A stretch of 61,725 bases of DNA, filler included, from Bipalium vagum (lineage: Eukaryota), in the NCBI GenBank assembly GCA_037834085.1. It is 3 parts of 3 records of this genome, joined end to end, with 100 filler letters (N's around TTAATTAATTAA, not from the genome) between each part and the next. Parts side by side here need not be neighbours in the genome. Positions count along the whole stretch, not along the records: positions 24,730 to 43,464 come from JBBMKC010020869.1; 2 more parts are not named here. The stretch is one strand, 5' to 3'. This document shows positions 3,310 through 50,823 of this stretch, one piece after another. The position numbers were made by a program, and so were the translations under genes. How positions within the stretch are numbered: the stretch's first letter is position 1; every line of letters starts with the position of its first letter. The notes beneath the pieces were generated by a model, which saw nothing but the letters and a program-made list of their open reading frames with translations, did no database searches and was not told the origin of the DNA.

Positions 3310-4529
3310 CTTTAGGATATATACTTATAAATATTATCTTATAAAAAACCTTGAAAAAGGTTATAGAAAACTCTTCAATATTTTTTGTCAGTAATTATCC
3401 ATTTTCATCATTAAACACAATCTGAACCATTGGTCTTCATTAAATAAAAATATCAATAAAAATAGAAAATTTCTTGGATTTCAAAGGATTCTGAATTAGA
3501 TTAATGTGTAAAAGTAAATGTTCTATTTTTCTGCTTCACTAAAACAATTTAAAACAATATTTCTTTGAATTATATTCCATTTCTTTTGTCTCTCAATATG
3601 CTATCGAGAAACGAAAGCCTTCATCCATTATCTAACTCGCTCGACATGATGCTCTTAGTCTCTTTCCGTTTTGACACCCCACTTAAGATTTGGGTTGAGG
3701 TTGTCATTATTTCTTGTGGAAATTTTCAATATCAAACAGTTTTCTGAGCATATGTCAAGATAAGCTTTGAGAAAGAGAAAAATACAAATTTATATTGATT
3801 TTTTTTCTTTATTTAATCATTTGCAAAGATTTTACTCTAAGTCGGTCATCCTTCATCGTGTTGGTTTTAAAATTAAATGGTTTTTTAATAGTAGAAAGAT
3901 TATTTAAACAAAATTAATCCCAAAATAAAATTGGCCAAATGAGTCTGCTTTTCATTGTCTATTTTTCAACCTCTAAAATCTATGATTGATTAATTAGAAT
4001 AGAGGCCGAACATCATGCGGTCTTCATGGAAAGTGAAGTTATTTTTAGAACTTTGTTTTTAAAAATAATTAAATAAATATTTTTATTTATTTTTTTAATG
4101 TTTGTTTTGTCTTTTTTCTATTTCATTAGTTTTTAAATTATGGTCTCTAATTTTATGTTTTTGCAAAATTTTTTATTTGAATTTAATAATTATTAATAAA
4201 CACATTTTAAATATAAATTAATATTATTAGTTAAAATTATTATTAGTAATTAATAATTATTAATAATTTATTATTATTAATATTATAATTAAAACTTCAA
4301 TCTGTTTTTGAATTTAGAACATTTTAATGAAATTGTAATATTATTAATCGTCTCGTTCCTCCTCCTTGAATTTCATTCGTTCTTTTTGTACATGTAGTTA
4401 TAGATTTATAAAATTAAAATATCACGAATAAAAATATTAATATTGATTAAAAAAATTAGAAAATTAATTTTTTTCTAATTTTATGTTGCGCCCACAATTA
4501 AGAAATATATATTGTTAAAAAAATAATAT

Positions 4530-4921
4530 TTTCACCAATATGATTCACCTCCATATTTAGATGTAGAAATTTGTCGTCATCTAAATGAAATCTTTCATTA
4601 AATATAGGATGAGTGTGAAGGTTGGAGAAATTGGTCATGAAAAAGTCAAGATCTTTTGCCATTGAATTTTTTCCTTTACATACATCTAAATAATTTTACT
4701 TCTTATGGTCCGAAGTGCCACCATTGATTTAATTGAATTATTGAATTATTCAAGCCTCTAATTTAATGAATTAATGTATTGCCAGATCAATTGAAAACTG
4801 CATTTCTAGTGTCTTGCTTTGTAGAAAATTTAGTTACTGCTTATAGAAATATACATATTAAATTCTTTCAATTAATTAACAGAATGGTGAAGCTTGGAAA
4901 TGAATTATCGAAAACCCTGTA
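4530..4921 (+). mobile_element. Highly decayed rosa/DD41D-like Tc1/mariner 3' remnant
   Basis: Degenerate FHQYDSPPY..RHLNEIF..W..KSQDLLPLNFFL; ends in a TIR-like ACCCTG followed by TA. Confidence 0.5.
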
Positions 4922-5432
4922 TTGAAATTTTACAAATTTTATTAATTCAGTTTTTATAATATTTTAAATTTCTCCCAATAATATTTCATTAAATATAAGT
5001 ATTTTATTCTATCAATGATTCATAGATTTTTCCTGTCAAGTTTTCTATTGAAAAAAATTTAGTACATTTTTCATCCATAGATCTTTCGTATACTTTATTG
5101 AAAATTAGAAATAATTATAAGTAAATATTATTTTCTTTCTGTCAAAATCTGAAATATTTCATTTAAAAAACATAAACTTTCTTCTTTTAACATTTACATG
5201 AGGTAATTTTTTATGAACCCGTTTATGTGGTTGTTATATTGTTAATTTACAAATCAAATCTTCCTTTAATTAATTATATAATTATAATTATAATCATTAT
5301 AAGTCAATAAAAACAATTTTTAAGTATTTGGTACCCTAGAATTGCCGATAATTCGATTATTCGATAAAACTTTAATTAATATTTAATAATTTTATAAATA
5401 TCTCGATAGAAATGGAGAATTTATACAACAGT

Positions 5433-5488
5433 AAATATTAGTTCTAAGCTATAATTTTTTAAATATTAGTTCTAAGCTATAATTTTTT
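5433..5488. repeat. 28-bp tandem duplication
   Basis: AAATATTAGTTCTAAGCTATAATTTTTT occurs twice. Confidence 0.9.
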
Positions 5489-6329
5489 AAAAATTATTTT
5501 TATTTTATAATATTTTAACTGTAATTAATAAATGCGAAAAATTATATTTTTAAGAAATAGTCAGCGCTCGGTTATTTGAATAAATTCCAAAAATTTCCAA
5601 TTTAAACTCAGTTATTGGAAAAAAGCAGCTGGGCTATTTGAATAATATTTATGTAAATTCAAACAAGTCGATGTAATATTTGTTTATAGTAATTGGTTTT
5701 TAGTAATTTATTATTTTATTATGAGAATTTACTAATGAATTTACTAAATATAAGTTTGAAATAAATTAATAATTTTATATTTACCTGTATTTTATAATTT
5801 AATTTTTTAAAACATTAATTAGGCATGATTTAATCTTGTAGACATCTTTTAATTCTATATAGTATTTTTTCGATTGATAACAATCTGAAAATACCTTTGA
5901 TTATATCTTTATTATTTTTATATATTATTATTATAAAATTAAAGAACTAAAAATAAATTTTTTTTCATCAATTTGATAAATCTGTAATTAAAAATTATTT
6001 TCCTTAATGAAATACTTTTTCAATCAATGTTTTTTTTGTTGTATATAATTAACGATAAATGCACAAAAATAGTTTTAAAAATTGAAGACAAGCAAAAATA
6101 ATGAAAAATTGAATAAAAAATTAAATACATCAAATTCAACATTAAAAGAATTTATTGAAAAATATTTGTAAACTATTTTTAATTAATTTTGTGAAATATT
6201 TGACGTTTTTCGATAGTTTTATTAAGTGATCAATTTCCTTGGTAAAATTAAAAAAATAATTCAAATTTTCTATTTATTTAATTTAATTTTTCAATTTTAT
6301 AAAAGGATTCGATATTTTAATTCTGCTAA

Positions 6330-12953
<6,624 letters not shown>

Positions 12954-14590: not shown

Positions 14591-15543
14591 TGTTACTATT
14601 ATACTTAGACGTAGTAACGTGTGCTTGTGTGCTCGTGACTCCTCACCTTTTTTAAAATCGTTGTGTCTGTAACTCCTCTTAATCTTTTCGAATCAAAAAA
14701 CCCACCACAATACCTTAACCGCACCCTTAGGAACTGAATCAAAACTTTTCAATAAAACTTTATTGACTAAAAACCAAATCACCAGGATAAGTTCCCAAAA
14801 TATGTCCAATAAATAATAATAACATGAATATACTACTATTAATGAGAAAAAAGAAAAAGATAATCACAAAGCGAGAAGTTCATGAAAAATAACACTAGAA
14901 ATAAACACAAAAAATATTGAACGGTCTCACCAATAGCGACAAGGGGTCCCGGGTTGCCCTCTAGGTCCTTCTCAGGTCACGTAGGGGTTTCCAAGGTCAC
15001 CGGGTCCCTTTGTGGAATCCTTCTGCGAAGTCATATCTACTTGAAAATATTTTGATGTCCTGTCTTCGGCTCGTAGCCCTTCTGAATTCGTGGTTTCCTG
15101 ATGGACGCTTCCTGGAATTGTCGTTCCCCGTTGTCGTATTCTCTGTTGGCATATTATCGTCCTGAATTCTGTTCCGATGGTCTAGCGTTTTTCTTTTTTT
15201 ATTGCGCCATTGTCGGGAACAGCGGTCTCTTTATATAGTCGTAGAGATTGGTCTACGATCACCAATCCCTACACTTAGAGATGGCTATTTTCCTTATTAG
15301 CCATCAACTCTATCTCTACGCCGAGATAGACTCATATCAAAACTAATGGAAACCTGCAGTTCACCCGACTGTCAGAGAATTCATTAGCCTAATCTGTCGA
15401 AAATCCCCATGGCGGGATTTTGTCAAAAAATAAATTTCTAAAAAATTTTCAAAAAAAAGTCTTATTATTATATTATTATAATCATTATTATTACTACCAT
15501 TACTAATTTCCATAATCATTATAATTAATTCCGAAATCTAACA
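14591..15543 (-). mobile_element. Solo LTR, copy A (953 bp; probably Ty3/Gypsy)
   Basis: TGTTA...TAACA termini and 4-bp TSD TTAT. Homologous to 35392-36361 and 40600-41172. TATA box, inverted CCAAT pair and AATAAA on the minus strand. Confidence 0.9.
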
Positions 15544-16918: not shown

Positions 16919-19900
16919 ATGATTGACTTGTTTACCATATTTTCGAAGGGTGGTTTAGTTTTGGTTTGGTATTTACAAAATGGAACAGATACGGTGACTA
17001 AATCAGTGAATTCTTTAATAAAATCGATTGTTTTACAAGTATTATACAATACTTAAATTTCCAACTATTTTTATATAATTTTTAGGATAAAGTAAGCAAA
17101 AACCCTTATAATAATGATTTAGTTTCTCTGCAGTATTATATGGATAACCAATTCGATCTAGTTTATGTTGTAAGTTGTTAATTACATGTGTTCTGTATTA
17201 TTTTAATTTAAGGTAGCATATCAAAGGGTATTAGAACTAAGTTACATGGATAAATTTTTGACAGCAATTGAACTGAAATTCAGGGATAAATACAGAAATA
17301 TTTTGGAATCTAAAAATTTTCTTAATGATTTTTCTGATTTCTTGCCAACCGTAGATAAGATATTTTTAAATATTAAAAGCGAAGCTCTTAATAAACCAAA
17401 AAAGTATAACTATAAATTTAAAAATAATTTAAAATTTTCTACTGTTTCTTATGGATTGTATTTTACTTCTAGAGAAATGATATCATTTCAAGAATCTTAT
17501 AAATCATCTAAAACCTTGAAATCGATGACCAATGAAAACTTACGAAATTCTAAGATAGAAAAGCCCAAGATTATTGATAAGAAAGTTGAAAAGGAAACTT
17601 TGGAAATTAAACCTGAAGGTATGATTTTCATAAGTATATCATTATAAAATTTTTAGTTGATTTTTTCTACGTTTGATTTAAAATATTGGAGATATATCTA
17701 CATCTTAAAATCATATACAATGTTGTATTATTTATCAAGTTTTTAAAATTGAAATTAACTAGAAAAAGGAAGTACAAGACAAGAATATACTATATTATAG
17801 GTATAATTTTAGTTCTTAGTGTCATGTTATTAATTAATTATTTATAAAGTTAGCAAAGTCACTGAACTTAAATTTCTGTAGTGAAGTACACTTATTTTTG
17901 GTATTTCTAATCGTTGGGTTGATTGACCAAATTTAAATTCTTCTTTTTATTGGTTTATATTAAATTACTATGGTTTAATCGATATTAATAGTTAAAAAGC
18001 AATAATGAAATTTTTAAAGCATTTTCTTTTCATTTGACTTCAATTGTTTCAGTTGTCATAATAATCTATTATATAATTTTAATTATTTTACTAATCTTTT
18101 TGATTGATGATTATCAATAATTTATTATGATAAAAGAATTCTGTTTTATAAAAAAAACTTTTCTATCGAAATTTTGATATTCCTTTAATCCAGACTAATT
18201 ATAGCGAATGGTGATACGGATGAGCTGAAGTGTAACGTTTTTATTCCATTTCATTAATTAATTTTTAACGTAATGTCTACACAATGTTACAATTTTAATA
18301 AAATCAATATTCTGAACTTTATTTTGTTAAATTTTTTAATAATAGTAAGATTTCAAACATTACAGTTTTCTTTATTAAAACTCTAATAGGATTTATAAAC
18401 ATTTTTAAATTATCTGAAATTTTTTTATGTAATTTACCATATCATTACTTTACAGTTGAAAAGGTTGAAGAGGAATCAATCCAGAGTAAGCTGGCTAAAA
18501 TTACAAAAGGTCGATTGAAGAAGTCCAAAGTTGGAATCAGTAAAAAGAAGTCCAGTCCCAATGATTCTCCTTTAATTGAGACAGTAAAAAAAGTTAAGGG
18601 GAAAGAAAATCGAAAGTGGACCAATGAGGCTACTGGAGTGGAAGCAGCTGCTTTGAATTATAGCAAAAAAAGCGAAATCAATGGCGATAAAGAAGATTAT
18701 TCTTTAGAAGATAAACTTCCAGCTGAGGATTTGGAAGAACTCAACCAACTGAAGGGTCGATTAGAAGGACAGTTACGTGATATTGATGCTGAATCATCGG
18801 ATTCAAATGGTTCTGATGTCGAGGTTGAAAATGAGGATGATTTATCAAGTAGCAAGTTTCAGAAAAAATCTAACAACATGTTCAGTTTACTGAGGAAATG
18901 GGTTGGTGTTCCTGGAGGAACGCTATCGGAAGAACAAATGGCTCCGGTTCTTGAAAACCTGAAAAATCATTTGATATTCAAGAATGTTGCAAGTGAAGTT
19001 GCCTCAGAATTGTGCAATAGTGTATCTAAGAAACTGGTTGGTACTGAACTTGGAGCGTTTGAACGAATATCTACAAAGATTAGAACTGCAATGGAAGACT
19101 CTTGTCGAAAACTCTTAAATTGTGGTAGACGTATCGATGTTCTGAGAGATGTTATTGCTGCAAAAGCACAAGGACGACCATACGTAATTTCATTTTGTGG
19201 TGTCAATGGAGTTGGAAAATCGACAAACTTGGCAAAAATCAGTTTCTGGTTAATTGAACAGGGATTTAGAGTTATGATCGCAGCTTGTGATACCTTTCGT
19301 TCTGGAGCCGTTGAGCAGCTTAGAGTGCATGTTCAAAAACTTAATTATATTCACCCACCGGAACAACATCATGGTCAGCAGATGGTGCAATTGTACGAAA
19401 AAGGTTATGGTAAGAATGCAGCTACCGTAGCGATGTGTGCCATTTCAGCTGGTAATATCATATTTGGTTTTTAATTTCAAATTGACTATTCGTTTCCAGC
19501 AAAGGAAAAACATTTTGACGTAGTAATGATTGATACATCTGGTCGAATGCAGGACAATGAGCCTTTAATGCGCTCCTTAGCAACAGTAAATATTATATTA
19601 TATTTTTCTAGATTATTATTTTTTTTTAGCTTATTTCGGTTAATCAACCTGATCTTATTCTTTTTGTTGGTGAGGCGCTTGTTGGTCATGAGGCTGTTGA
19701 TCAGCTTGTCAAATTTAATAAAGCCCTTCAAGATTATAGTGGTTCTGATCACCCTAGAACTATTAATGGAATAGTACTCACGAAGTTTGATACAATTGAC
19801 GATAAAGTTAGTTACCCTAAAGATTTTGTTTAATTGGAAATTATTGTTTTTCATTAATCAGGTAGGCGCAGCTATTTCAATGACTTACATACTGGGCCAG

Positions 19901-24729: not shown

Positions 24730-25074
24730 ATCTATGGATATCTTAGCCATATTTAACAAAAGAATTTCTAAAATTAAAAAAATATATTACTTAAGCATTA
24801 GCAAAACGTTGCACATATAGATTTCACTTAAAAATTGAATTTATCCTTAAAATAGTTTATATATTTAAATGAAATCAAAATTTAAAAACGCCTTAACATA
24901 ACAAATCTATTTTAATAATTATACAATAATTTTTTAAATAAATTTTAATGAGTATTAAACCTAACATAAACATATTTCTAAATTGACATAGACATTAACA
25001 AATAACATAAATAAAATAACAATATTATTAATTCTATGAGTTCTTGGGTCGTCCGCTATGCCATGTTTACTTAC

Positions 25075-28000
25075 ACACGGATTCTCTAACTAAAGAGGAC
25101 CCATTGAAAAATCATGTTGCAGAAAGGGTAAAATACTTACCATCAATGAAAAATTCTTCCGACTATAAAAAAACAAATCGTAAGTCTGCTTAAAGATTCT
25201 TTAAACACAAAAATAAATAAATCGTTTAACTAAATTTTTTGACTACTCTTTCTTCGGGAAATTTTTCGTCTTATATAGTAGTAGAAATTGGCCGTAGACC
25301 ACCAATTGCTACGTTTGAAAAGCTATTTCCTAAGTAGCCTAATAATTCCAAAATTATTTTTCTATTGCCTCGACGACAAGATTAATTATTAACTATTAAT
25401 TATTATCTCTCGTTATTTTTTAAAGTAATTTTATTACTGTAGAGACTTTCAGGGTCTGATCCAACGAACCTACCAGTTTGTGTAATCCATTAATTTTATG
25501 GATTACAATTATCTTTTGATAAACAAAATTTTGTTATTATGCATGAAAAATATAATTTTGGGGTTTTACTTAATATTTTAATTGAAAAATTTAGAATATC
25601 TAGACACCTAAAATCCTTCCTTTTTATGTTATCATATGTTATCAAATAACCTAATCTGGTTTTCAATAGATGATTGTAGTATCTTTCTTCAAATTTAGCT
25701 AAAATTCTTTATCAATAAAAACGTGAAACAGAAATTTTAACGGTATTTCTCTTTGAAAATTCCCATCCCAGCTGGTAAGGGAATTCAGAATTCTACAAAA
25801 TGGTTTTTTATACCTCCGTTTATTGATTTGAATAAACAAATTCTTCTAGAATTTCTACTTTCTTAACTTTTTAATTTTCATTTCAATAGTTATAATTTTT
25901 CTAAAAATAGATTCTAAAGTTTTCTTATTTTGGCCTGCTTTCCAAAACTTTAAATAATAATATAATTAATATTAATACAAATATTATTTTGATGATATAA
26001 TATAAATATAAAAAATTGATTATCAATCAAAAAAATGTTAAAGTCAATTTCACTATAAAGGATTTCTGTTTTTTATATATTTTTCGATCTCTGAACTGAT
26101 CTAAAAATATTTTTATGTAAAAATTGATTTACCTATTTATCAAGTTTTCATTTGATTTCAGAAATAGAAAATTATAATTAAAAAAATAAAATTTAAATAA
26201 AATTTACTTGATTGGATTATAGAGAAAACCTCTATATCTAAATTTCTTATTTTTTCAAAAGTTTTGTATTTTAAATTGTTATAAATAAAATCTTGGTCTT
26301 GAAAATACTTTCAACTCATATCTGCCTTAATCATTTGTGAGGCTAAAAATTTTTTTAATTAAACACAAAAGCTAGTTTTATATTATCTGAAGCATAAATA
26401 ATATATTTGAATTTACACTAACTATAAGCATTGTAGAGTTAAAAATAATTCAGTAATATTAGTACAAAGTCAAAAAAATCCATTGAGATTGTACCTGAAA
26501 CTTAATTCATTCATTTTACTATATTCCTTTCATAAAATTTTTTTTCAGTTCAAACTTGTCAATCCAGGTAAGGAGAAATCGATATTTCTAATTTTAGTAT
26601 CTAAACATATTTTATTTCATTATAATAGAAATATCTCTAAACTTTAGAAACAATATCCAAATAACCGACAAAAATATGTTCAAATAAATCTTCATAACTG
26701 TGTATGATCTCTTTTATTTAATTTTTTCTAATTTCGAAAAATTAATTGCATGTTGTGAATATCGGTTTTCAAAATAAAATTATTTTATGAAAATAAAAAC
26801 TTAAAATCTTATTTAACATTTATTTACCGAAAAAACAACATTGATATTATCATTCAATGATTTCAGACAAAATGATATAATAATTATTAATAAAGAACAG
26901 TTACTTTTTAATAACAGTTGAACTCATGATCACCACAGTATAAATTGATCAAAGAATTTTAAATTTATTTTCTCACACAATGAGAATAGTTAGTTAAAAA
27001 TATTGATGATTTTTCGATATACTGGTTGAAGAATATTCTTGAATTAATGCAATCTTAATTTACACATCAAAAATGGAGTGCAAAGTTTAGTTCAAATGTG
27101 AATAATCAACATTGACAAAGACTACCACTTGTTCTTCCACTAGTCAATTTTATTCCCCCTGCAGGAGAATCTGACAATTTATTCCATCTAAAACAAAATT
27201 TAAGAAACCATTAAATCTTTTACATAATTTTAAGAATTTCAAAATAAAACTTAGAAAATTAATACTCATTATGAAAGCCTTGGAGATACAGTTTTCTGGT
27301 CATATAATGAGGATTAAATTATAAGTGTCTATTGGTAATATTTATTCGTAGCTTAGAACTCGAATTTAGTTTGATAAAAACATTATGAACTATATTAGTT
27401 AAAATGGCTACAAAAGATTAAGAGTGACTTAAAATAATTTTGTTTAAATGCTCCTAAATATCTATAAATATTTGTAGATAAAATTGATCAATAGATCTAG
27501 CAGAACTTATAAACACTAAAATAAATTTAATATCCCATTCTACAATTCCCCATCTGAACACTGTGATCAGTATGAGTCATTTTGAAATGATAAACAATAA
27601 ATCTCAAAGTCTCTTTTGATGAAAGCTTACCCTCCTTGAAATGGATTTTGATTGTTGCTATCAATTTGACGCGTTTGTAAACTTGATTAATTTATGAATA
27701 TTTATTTTATGTATTGCTTTGACGTAGTTGAATGTAACGAAAGTTGTTACTTTTCATTTTATATTTTATCAATAGAAAATTAAATTATTATTAGAAAACT
27801 GTATAAGATCAAAATTAAATAAAATTATAAATACTTCAATGGAAAACAGAATTTAAATAAATTCATGAGCAAATTATAAAAATCTAAAGATGATTGATGA
27901 AAAATATCACATTTTTATTTTTGGTAATATACATCGCTACTAAATTAATGAAATTTTAAAGGGGCATATAAAGAGAAAAGCAAAGATTTTGGAAAAAATC

Positions 28001-32956: not shown

Positions 32957-33715
32957 CTAGAACCTTTTTCGTATATCTCCGAAATTTTGAGATGATGTTC
33001 GTACCACACTGTTTGCTGTTTCATTGGATTCCCATCTACTAACAATGGAACGAGTACACTCAAAAAATACTTCTTGTATGTGTTCGCCATTAATGGCACT
33101 TGTCTCGAAAAATAACATATCATTTTCCTTGGAAAAATTTTCTGCCTCAGCAAACGAGACTTCTCTTGATCCTTTATTATCGTCCAAATCTTTTTTGTTG
33201 CCCACAAGAATTGTCGATAGGTTCGTACCCGCCAAACTTCTCGCATCAGAAAGCCAATTTATAACGGCATTAAAGGAATCTCTATTGGTGATATCATATA
33301 CAACCAAGGCTCCGCTAGCACCTCTATAGTATGATCGAGCAACAGATCTAAATCTTTCTTGGCCTGGAAAAAATTTTTACAATAAATTATCAATTTAATT
33401 TATTATTAAACGTTAATCTAATTTATGATAATGAAATGACCACATGATTTTATTTTATTAAAATTCAAAGTAGTGAAAGATAATTTAGAAGAACATAATT
33501 GACTAAATAAAAATTTGACCTGCTGTATCCCATATTTGGAGCTTTACTGTTTTATTATTAACTTGAATTATTTTACTAGCAAATTCGACTCCAATAGTAT
33601 GAATGGAATTTTCTTTAGGTTTCCGTTCAATAAAATGATGAAGAATACATGATTTACCAACTCCAGCGTTTCCAATTATTAAAAATTTAAATAAAAATTC
33701 ATATTGTTCAGTCAT
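32957..33715 (-). CDS. RAB4: Rab4-like small GTPase; exons 33715-33520 and 33363-32957 (alternative end at 32914 through a 34-nt intron)
   Basis: [68 protein letters not shown]. Confidence 0.88.
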
Positions 33716-34905: not shown

Positions 34906-35516
34906 TATTATTAGTAGTATCAGTATTAATTAATTATTATTATTACTAACCCTGATATTATTATCAACTATATTGTAGTCCTTTTTTAAAAAACCTTTTT
35001 GAGAGATGTCTTCGAACTAACTCAACGGGAAATCCTGATTTATTTAAATTCGGTTCCCCGACTCCCTTAATTAAAATTACTCAGACTTTATCAACAACTT
35101 TATTTATATATAATACAAAATTAAATCACAATTTCTGTTTTAACACAATCCAAATTATTTTCTACTTAATAACTGGTTCTTTTTGTTCCGCTTTCACTTT
35201 ACCTTACCTGGTTCAGATTCCACTTCACCCATCTTCTTAGTTTTCTATCATTAATTTGGCTGAATTTTCTTCCGATTCCTTTTGACTTTAAATTTATGAT
35301 GATTACTATGGTTACTATGAAAATATTAAAGTTAAATTTAACCTAGATTCTGATTAAAAATTTATTTTTATTTTTAAAAAATAGAAACATTTGTTGGGTT
35401 TTGAAAAATAATAATTTTGAATAATAATAATTTCAGTAATAATAATAATAATAATACAAAAAAAATTTTTTTTTTCAAAAAAAAAGGGGGGAAATTTTTT
35501 TCTGATTAATTATTAA

Positions 35517-35704
35517 GGGGAAATCCCACCGTGGGGACTATTTTTTCATGGGATCATTCTTGTTAATTGGAGATGGGGAAATCCCGTCGTGGGTATTATT
35601 TTTCATGGGATCAGGAGACTATCTCGGCGTGGAGATAGTGAGAAGCTATAGTCGTCTCAGAGCAGGGATTGGTGATCGTAGACCAATCCCTACGCGTATA
35701 AAAG
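35517..35704 (+). promoter_or_regulatory. LTR U3 promoter: duplicated palindromic boxes, inverted CCAAT pair, TATA box
   Basis: GGGGAAATCCC..CATGGGATCA twice; CTATCTCGGCGTGGAGATAG; GGGATTGG..CCAATCCC; TATAAAAG at 35697. The CCAAT pair, CTATCTC palindrome and TATA box are conserved in copy A. Confidence 0.7.
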
Positions 35705-35727
35705 GAGACGGCTATTCCCGTTAAGTT

Positions 35728-35878
35728 GCCCAAAAATTTCAGAGGAAACATTCAAAAGTTCTGCCAAAAAAAAATTTCAGAGGAAACATTCAAAAGTTCT
35801 GTCGGGAAAATTTTCAGAGGAAACATTCAAAAGTTCTGCCCAAAAATTTCAGAGGAAACATTCAAAAATTCCAGAGGA
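35728..35878 (+). repeat. Four ~35-38 bp tandem units inside LTR B
   Basis: Core TTTCAGAGGAAACATTCAAAA occurs four times. Confidence 0.92.
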
Positions 35879-35954
35879 CGCTGTTGGAGGAATTAAGAGG
35901 ACGACTATAGTAAATCTTTTATTCATTTCCAAATTATGCAGTCGGATTCTTTTT

Positions 35955-36044
35955 ACAAGGGGACCCAGCGAGCTTGGGAATCCCTAGGCGATGTGAGAAG
36001 GGTCTAGAGGGTGACCCGAGGACCCCTTGTCTCTCTTGGTGAGA
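35955..36044 (+). ncRNA. Conserved structured RNA element plus splice donor in the LTR (also 14925-15013 minus, 40749-40837 plus)
   Basis: ACAAGGGG/CCCCTTGT closing stem, GAGA and GNRA tetraloops, a compensatory pair change, and invariant GGTGAGA. Confidence 0.6.
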
Positions 36045-36559
36045 TCGATTTTGATTATTTTTATTTTTCGTTTTGTTTTCTTCAATTTCAGTATTAAATT
36101 ATTATCATTATTAAATTTAAATTCAGTAGTAGCGGGATTTCAGTTTATCCATAATAACATTTCTTTTGTGATCGATTTAATATTTGTAATTATTAGTACA
36201 AATAAATTTTTATTTAAAATATCTTGAATTGGTTATTAAAGGGAGCGGATACTGTATATTGGAGGGTGTTTTACATTCAAAGGCGTTGAGAGGGATTTCG
36301 AACACAACGAGTTACACAAAGTGACGAGCACACGTTGCTACATTTTAGTATAATGATAACACATTTTTACAAAAAATATCAAATTTTTTATTTCAAAAAT
36401 TTACAACAACATTTAATGTGAAAGTAAAAATCTCAGAAATTACATTTAAGTTTGAAACACCACTAATTATTAATCTAAATTTCAACTATAAATTTGCTTT
36501 AATTTATTTTTCAAAAAATCTCTTTTTTTAAAAAATAATAAAATAGTTGTAACTATTAC

Positions 36560-40130: not shown

Positions 40131-40576
40131 CCGGGTGCGTCGTATAATCGCGGAAATAAATACACAAATATAAAAATTAAATTTATGAAGTAAAATTTTA
40201 TTGAGAACTAAATATGAACTTATATTTATTACATTATACATCCATAAACAATTATTCAAAAAGACCTACATCAGCATCAATTACGGCCTGAACCCTGGAC
40301 CTGAACCTGGAGCAAATCTTGATAATGTACTCCTGAGATATATTGTTCCATGCCTTCGTTAAAGCTTTCTTTAGAGACTTCAAATTAGAGTGCTGTACTT
40401 TGGAGGCCTCTGTCTGAACAGAGAAAATCAAAGGAGAATTGAGAGGAAGTGAGATCAAGTGAGCTAGCGGGCCATATTGATTTATCCCAGAATTTCATAT
40501 TTTCTTTCAGCCACGCTTGGGTTGCCTTTGAGGTATGACATGGATCTCCATCTTGGATAAAATTCATATGGTACAT
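40131..40576 (-). mobile_element. maT/DD37D-like transposon 3' remnant
   Basis: FIQDGDPCHTSKATQAWL..WPASSLDL, SLKKALTKAW..FRSRVQAVIDA; TA|CCGGGTG end. Confidence 0.8.
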
Positions 40577-40599: not shown

Positions 40600-41172
40600 T
40601 ATATACAGTCAAGGTTCGGATCACTCAAGGAATTAAAGGAATAGAGTTTAAATTCAAATTACACAATGTTATAAGTTCAAGTTCAAGTTTAGATCACGCA
40701 ATTATTTGTTTTTTGATTTGTATTGTTCCTGGGAGTCTTCACAAATTCACAAGGGGATCCAACGAGCTTGGGAACCCGTAGGTGACTTGAGAAGGACCTA
40801 GAGGGCGACCGGGGATCCCTTGTCGATCTTGGTGAGAGACCGTTTATTATTTTTGTTGTGCTGATTTCTGCTGTTACTTTTCATGAACTCTGTGATTCTT
40901 TTTTTCTCTCATTTCATTAATAGTAATGTATTTATTTTATTATTATTTATTGGACTTATTTGAGACTTCTCGTGGTGATTGATAGTGTGAATGTGCTTTT
41001 GGTTAATAAAGTTTTATTGAGCACGTTTTGATTAAGTTCTTAGGGTGCGGATACAGTTTTATTGTGGGTGTTTTGATTCGATAAGATTGAGAGGAGTTAC
41101 GAACACGCTTTATAAAAAGTGGAGTCATGAGCACACGAGCATACGTTACTACATCTAAGTATAATAGTAACA
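40600..41172 (+). mobile_element. LTR copy C, 5'-truncated (U3 missing)
   Basis: Shares the GC island, GGTGAGA, AATAAAGTTTTATTG and terminal AGTATAATAGTAACA with copy A. Confidence 0.88.
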
Positions 41173-44418: not shown

Positions 44419-44824
44419 TTAGGTGTGTGAATAAGTTTCGGATTCGGAATAAAAACGCCACAATTTTAATGTGCTTAGTAATACATTAATTATATATATA
44501 TGTTATTTGAAATAGTCAATAAATGTCTATTAATTTCACTATAAAAATGTCTTGTTTAAATATTCATCTTTTTAAAATTCGTTCCATAGCTCATGGTCCG
44601 GCTAACCAGCATTATAAACGTTACGAGGATACAAAATGTGGCTCGAATCTTGGATCGCCTCAGAAAACCCTGAATCGGAAACTTGTCTTGAAGGTGGGAG
44701 AAAGTATTGAAAAGCAGAATATTTCGAAGAATGAATGTGTTTATTTTTATAAAAAAGTTTATCTATTTTAGTTATTTCTTAGTTATTTATTTTTAAAAAT
44801 TCGGAAACTTATTCAAACATCTAA
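44419..44824 (+). mobile_element. Internally deleted mariner (same family as 7381)
   Basis: TIRs TTAGGTGTGTGAATAAGTTTCGGATT and AATTCGGAAACTTATTCAAACATCTAA. Confidence 0.85.
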
Positions 44825-46016: not shown

Positions 46017-46353
46017 TATAAGGAGTGATTCGAACAATTAGTTTTTTTGAATTTTTTAAAAAAAGGACCTCACGCCTAGATTAACAATTATTAAATGTTT
46101 TTAATTTAAAGTTTTAAAAAATTATGTTATAATCTTTAAATAAATATTTTAAATAAATGTTGGTTAATTTTAAAAAAGTTAATAATTTAATTTTAATAAA
46201 AGGTGAGGTCCTAGTTTGAAAAGTTTGTTTGATTAATTAGATTTAATGAAATATATTATTATCATTACTTTGATTTTGAATTCTTATTTACAAAGAATAC
46301 ACAAGAATATAACTTTGTGAAAGCTAATTTTGTTTTCATAGGACCACTCTATA
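46017..46353. mobile_element. MITE; second, truncated copy at ~48177-48463
   Basis: TATAAGGAGTGATTC..GGACCACTCTATA ends; internal inverted AGGACCTCAC/GTGAGGTCCT; collinear homology with 48177-48463. Confidence 0.75.
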
Positions 46354-47932: not shown

Positions 47933-48474
47933 CTGAGAAACCATTACAGATTTGATAGATAAAATCAATAATTGTAAAAATTTTTGCGAAAAATATGTTT
48001 TATTCATATTTACAGTCTTAAATTAATGTATAATTATTTATTTTATTTATAAAAAAAATTGTTGCCCCATCAATAAACAATTTTCAAAATTTGAATTGAA
48101 AAAATGTTTGTTGAACATTTTATTTCGTTTAAAATGTGTTTTATGAATTATTAAAGATTATTTTGTTATTTATAATTATAAGGAGTAGTTCGAACAATTA
48201 GTTTGCTTGAATTTTTTTAAATAAGGGTCTCACGCCTAAATTAAGAATAAGTTTTTAAAAATTATTAAGTTAATGTTTTTTAAATATTTAATAAAATATT
48301 TTAAATAAATGTTAACAAATTTTTATAAAGTAAATAATTTTGTTTTAAAAGTAGTTTACGTCCATGTTTGAAAAGTTTTTTTACGTAATCGGAATTAGTG
48401 AAAATATATTATTATTGCCTTGATCTTACCTCATTATTTAAAATGACTACACAAGAATATAATTATAATAACTT

Positions 48475-49784
48475 CAGGGTGTCCCATAAGTCCCTGCGGA
48501 AAGTAAACTTAAATATTTCTTAAGCAGATTGACATATTTAAGCGCTTGTTTTATAAAATTAAAGACAAATCTTTTAATATCTATTTCATATAAAAATATT
48601 TACAACAATTGCTCGAAATGGCTACTATTAACTGCTACTAATAAATGCATCCTTTTTATAATATTTAAAAATAAGCTATTCAAAGTTTCTGTGGTAACAC
48701 CTTTTATTTCTTTGGTGATTTTTGTTTTCAAGTCGTCAATATTTTTAATTTCAGATTTGTATATCTTTTTTCTTTAAATTGCCCCATAAATAGAAGTCAA
48801 GAGGAGTTAAATCAGATGAACGTGAATCCCATCGAATTGAACCACCTCTTCCAATCCACTTGTTCGGGAAATGAGCATCAAGATACCGTCATACATTTGT
48901 TGAAAATGCACAAGAGTTCCATTTTGCTGAAATACCAGAAACCGTACTTTGTACATTTTCCTCCCTTCAAACATAAATTAGTCTTGAAGCATTGATAGAT
49001 AATTTTGGCCATTATCTCATCTTCAAAGAAATATGGACCGATAATTTTATTTTTTGACAAAGCACACCAAACATTTACCTTATGAGATTTTCTAGCAGTT
49101 TCAAAAGTAACATGTGGATTACTTTCTGACCAAAATCTGACGTTATGTGTATTAACACATCCTTTTAAGTAAAACGTTGCTTCATCTGAAGAGAAAATAT
49201 TTTCCTGAATATCCACATTTTCTAACATTAGGACCAGGGTTTTGCACATCTCAACTCTGTCTTGCAAATCATCTTCATGTAATTCCTGCGTGAAATGGAT
49301 ATTAAAGGGTTTCAATGATAACTGTTCTCTCATTATTCGATGGGTTGTTGTTCGCGAAATGGAGCAGGTTGTTGCAACAGATCGAACACTGCATTGTGGG
49401 CCACTTTTAATAACTTCACTCATTTTCTGAACTTCATTTTCAATGATCAGCCTTAGTCTTCCAGAACGTTCACGATCTTCCACCGAGTCAATATCATAAA
49501 AACGATGAGAAGTCTCTTATAGTACTTTCACTCGGTGAGGTTTTCCCAAATTCGGCATTTAATTTCCGTTTAACAACAAAAAATTGAGTTGAATTTGGCC
49601 ATTAAAAGTAAAATTTTGATTTCTAACTTCAAATCAAGCGGTATTTGCTAAATCTAATTTTAAAATATTAAAAAAAAAACCTAGACTTACATACTTTATT
49701 ATTATATAAATAGAAATTTCAATCGATTGAATTTAATGAAAGATATTTAAGTTTAATTTCCACGCGGACTTATGGGACATCCTG
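48475..49784 (-). mobile_element. Near-full-length rosa/DD41D element with frameshifted transposase
   Basis: TIRs CAGGGTGTCCCATAAGTCC and GGACTTATGGGACATCCTG; SDEATF, KVNVWC, IIGPYFF, WIGRGG..SDLTPLDFYLWG; 41-residue spacing after frameshift repair. Confidence 0.93.
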
Positions 49785-50823
49785 TATATTACAAAAAATA
49801 AATAAAATAATAAATATTAGAATGGTACAAAAATAAACTATGGTTTTTGACCCTTAATTTTAAACTGATAAGATTCACATGTAAAAAATATTTTTCACAT
49901 GAGCAAATCTATTTATTCTTGTTGAATAAAAGCTTGTAGACCTGGAGACTATAAAAAATTGAAGATTGTTTTAACATCGGGTCGGTTTTGAAAGTTTTTC
50001 CCATGAATATTAATAGCTAGTCACTTCAAAAAGTTTTAGTTTATAAGTGAGAGGTTTTAACAGCAGGCACGGTTCATATTATACTTTTCCCATTTCACAA
50101 ATTTCTTTACTTTTTGATTTTCTTTGGTTTAATTTTGATTAAAAGAGTTACTTGATGGTTTTCAGTCGGTAACTTTCGAGTACTGTGCATCATATCTTTC
50201 AAATTTCCATCATCATTTCAGAACTTGGCAAATCACAACAAAAACCAAAAATCACCTCTTACAGCTCTGAATGTATGATTAATGAGAAAACAATAAATCA
50301 CAGGGTAACATATACTCCAATTGCCACATCTAAAACTTTTAGAAACATTGAATATTATGAGTACTTAAATTATAAACTCTCATCAATAATGTTACCAGTA
50401 ACAAGCCATCTAATAGCCAGTGTAGTCCAGCTTTTATAATATTTCATTCAATTTTTATTTTAATTTCATAGTTATAGATATATTACATGTAATTAATAAA
50501 GGAAGCACTCTGGCAAAGTCCTGAATTATTTTCTTCTGCAATCTTGCCTGAGTTTCCAGGCATTTGAAAGTGTTATGCGATGCATGAAAAGCTCTACATA
50601 GTTTGGAATTTTGGAATTTTTATGTCTGACACATTGAAAATTTGATAAACCCTTGCTTCTTAATTAAAATCAATAAACTGAGGATCTCAACGATTTGGTT
50701 GAATACTTTACAACTTAAACAAATTTTCATAATTATCTTTACTTATGAGACGGAGGTAAGTATTTCAAATCAATAACTTTTCTGAAATTCAACTTCGAAA
50801 ATAACTGGTGTTATGAAAGACTA

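Follow-up and report, generated by a model that had tools for sequence, protein, structure and literature searches.

The stretch of Bipalium vagum DNA analysed as a whole (61,725 nucleotides, GenBank assembly GCA_037834085.1; the window in the following) holds intron-containing host genes and Tc1/mariner remnants, together with copies of one LTR family whose features are compiled in Table 1. An SRP-receptor protein encoded in the window has its best matches in tapeworm and fluke, at about 49-50% identity, which suggests a poorly sampled lineage, and short host introns with loose donors are found at the loci 19452-19861, 6496-6540 and 33364-33519. Further repeats comprise a 300-nt direct repeat (46017-46312 and 48177-48462; 75% identity, 2.15 kb apart), terminal inverted repeats (48463-48516 and 49743-49794) flanking a mariner-like ORF, and a dispersed 167-nt repeat (7381-7547 and 44419-44578).

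Table 1. Coordinates of the LTR copies and their observed or predicted parts, counted along the window
Feature	Position	Strand	Remarks
Solo LTR, copy B	35392..36361	+	starts TGTTGG, ends ATAACA; 4-bp target-site duplication CATT
Conserved U3 inverted repeat, copy B	35664..35691	+	just 5' of the TATA box; depth peak in run X1
TATA-like box, copy B	35697..35703	+	common to A, B and D
Hypervariable section of likely R, copy B	35732..35881	+	four copies of a 35-38 nt unit; trough of X1 depth
Island, copy B	35955..36030	+	predicted rod
TAG closing a candidate short reading frame	35985..35987	+	inside the arm; frame common to A, B, C and D
Apical GAGA loop (GNRA-type)	35995..35998	+	not kept in D
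'Second GNRA' of the earlier note	36011..36014	+	35981 is the likely partner of its first G
GGTGAGA, candidate 5' splice site	36038..36044	+	GT at 36039-36040
Candidate mini-intron in R, copy B	36039..36132	+	T-rich tract; AG ends at 53 and 88-94 nt
AATAAA, copy B	36201..36206	+	common to A, B and C; G/T-rich stretch next
Solo LTR, copy A	14591..15543	-	TGTTAG…GTAACA; 4-bp target-site duplication ATAA
Parts of copy A	island 14939-15013; donor word 14925-14931; AATAAA 14759-14764; TATA 15237	-	
Copy C	40746..41172	+	without the LTR 5' half; island 40749-40823; donor word 40831-40837; AATAAA 41005-41010
Copy D	25023..25339	-	distant, decayed
Parts of copy D	U3 repeat and TATA 25255-25339; diverged island 25032-25107	-	pairs kept; no donor word

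Copies A and B are solo LTRs of an LTR retrotransposon. Both possess short inverted TG…CA ends of the form TGTTRNR…YNYAACA, their target-site duplications measure 4 bp (lengths of 5 and 6 bp do not fit), and the order of TATA-like box, AATAAA and G/T-rich stretch is as expected of an LTR. Judged by the ends and the duplication length alone, the family probably belongs to Ty3/Gypsy (Metaviridae); no match to gag or pol was obtained among the 27 ORFs scanned in the window, and no internal region of the element lies there. The profile match of copy C begins at 40746, i.e. at the island, and adjoins a weak Tc1-like match (40451-40570; tblastn E 0.01). Copy D, absent from the earlier note on this DNA, was found with a profile of A and B, the U3/TATA segment matching at E 0.0014.

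Directly 5' of the TATA box, U3 contains two to three tandem inverted repeats (15240-15335 and 25275-25340, both on the minus strand, and 35615-35695), kept partly via paired changes; the last repeat before the box shows the highest depth of the whole LTR in the public run X1, described below. The repeat nearest the TATA box of copy B we take to be two inverted CCAAT words. These U3 repeats may be promoter palindromes or 3'-end RNA hairpins. We infer that transcription starts about 25-30 nt 3' of the TATA-like box, upstream of the island, which begins 224 nt (A), 258 nt (B) and 170 nt (D) past that box. The intervening stretch (35720-35950; 15014-15210 on the minus strand) is hypervariable between copies, built of tandem 35-38 nt units in B and purine-rich in A, and is flanked by conserved blocks on both sides. 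Because the island is located between TATA box and AATAAA, it is likely part of R. The sequence of TATA box, island and poly(A) signal claimed earlier is borne out by the whole LTRs A and B, both with a TATA box, but not by copy C, where the LTR 5' half is missing.

The earlier note had described three island copies with their donor words (14925-15013 on the minus strand, 35955-36044 and 40749-40837), and all three are present; the core pattern matches three times in the window versus 0.01 matches expected by chance. As had been stated, the copies differ strongly upstream, with 50-57% identity in the 90 nt 5' of the island (46-50% when shuffled), while island and donor word together are 81-83% identical among A, B and C. 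Downstream of the island, B resembles A and C at 56-59%, almost the shuffle level, and A resembles C at 75%. The GC-rich character of the roughly 75-nt element could also be confirmed (GC 0.57-0.59, compared with 17-36% GC per kb in the window), as could the closing stem, the inner arm and a pair that is C-G in B and T-A in A and C. The word GGTGAGA, 7 nt past the stem, had been called invariant; it stands in A, B and C but is absent from D, i.e. it occurs in three of the four copies. A comparison with the known families of Rfam gave no match at gathering level in the window.

In the rod predicted for copy B, the outer stem has 11 bp and is interrupted by an A-A mismatch; a bulge of 9 nt on the 5' side and a purine-rich internal loop come next, and above them would follow the arm (9 bp), a GA bulge and the tip (3 bp). 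Where the earlier note had drawn a second GNRA hairpin, the letters of the loop are there but a hairpin lacks support, both of its pairs having probability 0.0 in A, B and C; apart from its first G, this loop likely faces 35978-35980 in an internal loop with tandem G-A. Here 'GNRA' and 'tandem G-A' serve as general labels for these loops. Constraining the fold to two hairpins was 3.4-4.5 kcal/mol worse than constraining it to the rod in each of the copies A, B and C, and the fold of the four-copy alignment is one long rod. Furthermore, the first G of the second loop is replaced by A in D, paired with T at column 27. Given the energies, the alignment fold, the pair 27-57 and the loop G that is lost, one long irregular rod with a single apical GNRA is more likely than two GNRA hairpins, an architecture that is probably wrong. 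In copy A both G's of the predicted tandem G-A loop have changed to A. Against the rod, the two pairs of the former second hairpin are intact and never vary in all four copies, and the minimum-energy fold of copy B is a third structure with a three-way junction, 8 kcal/mol lower than the rod. Taken singly, the copies are not clearly better folded than shuffled sequences on the sense strand (z -1.72, -0.21 and +0.50), and the minus strand folds about equally well (z -1.33 to -1.90). As the stability of single copies is unremarkable, the case for structure rests on comparison.

For this comparison, structure models were built from A, B and C only, and D was held out. Copy D proved to be the best non-training match of both models, with E 0.044 (16.6 bits) for the rod and E 0.018 (18.2 bits) for the two-hairpin fold, scores that do not separate the two folds; the sequence-only model was weaker on D (E 0.41, 6.9 bits), all these model E-values being rough. 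Relative to A, B and C, copy D carries 33-34 substitutions in 74-75 columns and keeps 20 of the 24 predicted pairs, where a random scatter of its changes keeps a mean of 11.1-11.8 (P 0.00005-0.00025), with the alignment of D fitted to the model and gapped only at columns 47, 65 and 77-80. Pairs of D changed on both sides are still standard in six of six cases versus A, five of five versus B and six of seven versus C. Over all four copies, changes on both sides are seen in 7 of 25 pairs, compared to 2.5 after shuffling and 0-3 in slid registers; the count is drawn from few sequences, and the new pairs are mostly T-A, in a genome drifting towards AT. The non-Watson-Crick cells of the sense strand comprise 10 G-U, 3 A-C and 5 other mismatches, and pair 30-53 fails in two of the four copies. 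It follows from D, which keeps the stems without the donor word and without the apical GNRA loop, its tip and part of the bulge being changed, that rod and donor are not inseparable, though D is decayed. On the minus strand D has two GTAAGT words, one upstream of the island (25143-25136) and one inside the tip (25074).

A further source of variants was the public run X1, in which 2,285 contigs, of unrecorded library type, match LTR B; only 194 of these 2,285 are at least 99% alike, such that the run may derive from another individual or species. A second run, X2, was left out of the counts, with 7 contigs matching LTR B and none matching island A. Depth of X1 along LTR B has three peaks, at the U3 repeat with the TATA box, at the island and at the LTR end; summed depth, which is not copy number, amounts to 23,000-45,000 over the island, 290-2,100 upstream and 4,400-8,500 downstream. 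Variants were scored on 14951-14991 of copy A only, with a threshold of 2%. Columns 35 and 48, which form one pair, show matched variant shares of 17.0% and 20.7%. In the apical GAGA loop, variation of at least 2% is confined to the N (2.9%) and the R (2.4%) of the GNRA pattern, and 15.9% of contig depth has A in place of the first G of the second loop. The shares at columns 56 and 61 (3.6% and 4.2%) are compatible with either the rod or the two-hairpin fold, and the 5.8% variant at column 33 has no partner change at 2% or more. Both the distant copy D and the X1 variant shares support the former description of the island as a conserved structured element in a likely R region. Considering the four-copy comparison together with the X1 variants, pairing in the island is in all likelihood under selection, and the island would most likely represent a conserved element acting at the level of RNA.

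The region between island and poly(A) signal offers a candidate route of RNA processing. The distance from donor word to AATAAA is 166, 162 and 173 nt in A, B and C. The tract 3' of the donor consists of 52-57% T, with AG ends at 36 nt in A, at 53 nt in B and at 88-98 nt in all three copies. Five host introns checked by translation measure 44, 45, 48, 55 and 156 nt; their donors (GTAATA, GTAAAT, GTTAGT, GTTATA and GTCAAA) are looser than GTGAGA. Since host introns are this short, a mini-intron inside R is plausible, and since A, B and C all retain it, unspliced RNA would have been the template at their making. None of the 15 joints listed, out of 32 in X1, starts at the donor. Predicted accessibility of the donor in local folds differs among A, B and C, and no conserved fold hiding it was found in the local folds of these three copies. 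Downstream of its island, D aligns no better than shuffled sequences. The donor word beside the rod may resemble the donor hairpin of HIV-1.

Several known systems invite comparison. In prototype foamy virus (Schrom et al. 2013, PMC3694450), the major splice donor lies upstream of the poly(A) signal within R; use of the poly(A) site near the 5' end is suppressed when U1 binds, and at the 3' end the donor is concealed by structure. The present LTR likewise places a donor-like word and a structure in a likely R, upstream of AATAAA. On the other hand, R of the foamy virus is 193 nt long with a mapped start (PMC3694450), compared to an estimated 450-500 nt from an inferred start here, and the candidate donor, unlike that of foamy virus, is placed beyond the 3' end of the rod, some 300 nt away from the presumed start. 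In addition, U1 dependence and masking by U3-dependent refolding were demonstrated for foamy virus (PMC3694450), whereas here sequence and predicted folds are compared; word and order for a foamy-type U1 control exist in three of four copies, R and donor use being predicted. In PMC2664473 and PMC3601003 (Benachenhou et al.), stem-loops in R are described from gamma-, beta- and lentiviruses, such as the MLV R stem-loop, HML and TAR/polyA, and stem-loops explain the residual conservation of a long R, much as proposed for the island. The retroviral structures are simple hairpins that sit either where R begins or close to the poly(A) signal (PMC2664473, PMC3601003); the island, in contrast, belongs to an invertebrate element, has no Rfam family and would form a bulged rod of 75 nt, placed 170-260 nt past the TATA box. 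Short inverted repeats, TATA, AATAAA and a G/T-rich stretch are shared with LTRs of animal Metaviridae (PMC3601003).

Tapeworm Saci2-like LTRs are alike in their TGT…ACA ends, 4-bp target duplications and flatworm hosts (PMC12471100), but span about 450 bp versus 950-970 here. The term 'secondary structure' is absent from the main text of that paper (PMC12471100). Retrozymes, hammerhead-bearing LTRs (PMC4918200), also carry a structured RNA, whereas here neither a hammerhead nor any other known ribozyme was matched. Layouts of hammerhead, hairpin, twister, HDV-like, SECIS, K-turn and tRNA elements did not fit, by Rfam and ARAGORN as well, and a c-di-GMP-II match (E 2.2) is at chance level. Scanning viral contigs with the core pattern returned 0 loci; three pattern loci in metagenome contigs all lack the flanking stems and were assigned to chance. 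By analogy, the rod, better supported than the two-hairpin fold, probably works like known R-region processing elements, and the comparison does not show the island to be a member of any known class of such elements.

Along these lines we suggest, at a probability of about 0.4, that the rod and the adjacent splice-donor-like word control splicing or polyadenylation of the element RNA. If transcription starts 5' of the rod, each end of the genomic RNA would contain the rod, the donor and the poly(A) signal. In the 5' LTR, U1 at the donor would suppress the AATAAA about 165 nt downstream, as in foamy virus, and/or the donor would start a mini-intron of host size. With bulges and a GNRA tip, the rod would bind protein or guide folding, and in this way set the use of the donor and favour genomic RNA that stays unspliced. 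Among the three functions proposed in the earlier note, U1- or splicing-linked control offers the best circumstantial fit, and the ribozyme is without positive support.

The stems that D retains without a donor are also what one would expect if the rod were a packaging, dimerisation, export or strand-transfer element at both RNA ends, and the donor a separate matter; bulged rods are known from retroviral R regions (PMC2664473). Dimerisation, however, is poorly matched by a tip that is GAGA with no conserved self-complementary loop, and the palindrome GGATCC exists only in copy C of the four, within the stem; this group of functions is possible but, on balance, unlikely. A smaller chance is given to the idea that a short upstream reading frame constrains the 5' half in addition, or in the main; a ribosome on it would open the rod and tune translation. 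This frame would start at an ATG 21 nt 5' of the stem, and in columns 1-30 synonymous changes account for 18 of 43 differing codon pairs, versus 6 of 38 and 3 of 36 in the other frames, pairs that are not independent. Between A and D 5 of 10 are synonymous (null 1.14, P 0.002) and B versus D gives P 0.025, while there is no excess among A, B and C (P 0.25-0.42), C versus D gives P 0.12 and the third-position bias reaches P 0.08-0.11. The column 33 variant keeps the stop and breaks the pair. An in-frame ATG is found in copy A (15034) and in one single X1 contig, yet the ATG of B is out of frame, there is none close by in C, a stop interrupts the frame in D, and A and D are without the TAG. Upstream, each of the four copies keeps the frame open over at least 30 codons; taken one by one, most of these open lengths do not reach significance when compared with dinucleotide shuffles (P 0.015-0.36). 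Furthermore, it stops within the stem, and the foamy shunt ORF stops before its stem (PMC2761275). The earlier note had reckoned with conservation owed to an overlapping ORF; this could in part apply to the 5' half, but an ORF leaves the paired changes on the 3' strand unexplained.

An R-region RNA role has to be weighed against the conserved inverted repeats of U3, up to three before the TATA box of the same LTR, which together with the equal folding of the minus strand could mean that the island acts in DNA, as transcription-factor sites or as a single-stranded or cruciform hairpin. It can be held against such an action, which we consider improbable, that G-U exceeds A-C by 10 to 3 on the sense strand, that loop variation follows GNRA, and that the paired transversions of D keep no sequence motif. 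Hammerheads cut LTR-to-LTR transcripts in retrozymes, and an undescribed self-cleaving ribozyme might do the same here: a tertiary core could be built from unpaired bases that are conserved, namely the GA bulge, the purines of the internal loop and the A-A mismatch, and the homology of copy C starts at the island. Besides the lack of an Rfam match at gathering level, four local scans were at chance level (best E 0.43), no conserved pseudoknot was seen by eye, and D alters the tip and part of the bulge, which makes self-cleavage of this kind very unlikely indeed. It is scarcely credible that the island is a captured Pol III promoter derived from tRNA or 5S RNA, of the kind carried by Helenus, Ajax and Cassandra. 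Although 75 nt with a closing stem in an LTR with a 4-bp duplication recall the animal Helenus (PMC10886601), ARAGORN reported 0 genes, Rfam returned no tRNA or 5S, and the box-B word GGTTC given in that paper (PMC10886601) is missing from all four islands. Helenus-type identity is thus largely refuted. There is, finally, a slim prospect that the rod belongs to a new tertiary-folded class of retroelement RNA, marked by a GNRA tip, a tandem G-A loop and a hinge bulge, that would gate the donor, and perhaps be self-cleaving or switched by a ribosome stopping in the arm. If true, such a rod would be a device linking translation or cleavage to the choice of RNA ends in an animal LTR retrotransposon.

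The significance of splicing- or polyadenylation-linked control by rod and donor lies in a problem of the element itself, in that an LTR with a poly(A) signal inside a long R must silence that signal at the 5' end. Such silencing has been worked out in a few vertebrate retroviruses; we found no literature on it for invertebrate Gypsy-like elements and no description of the present element. The Bipalium vagum family may therefore serve as a compact, high-copy candidate, combining a predicted rod, a donor-like word, a possible mini-intron and a poly(A) signal.
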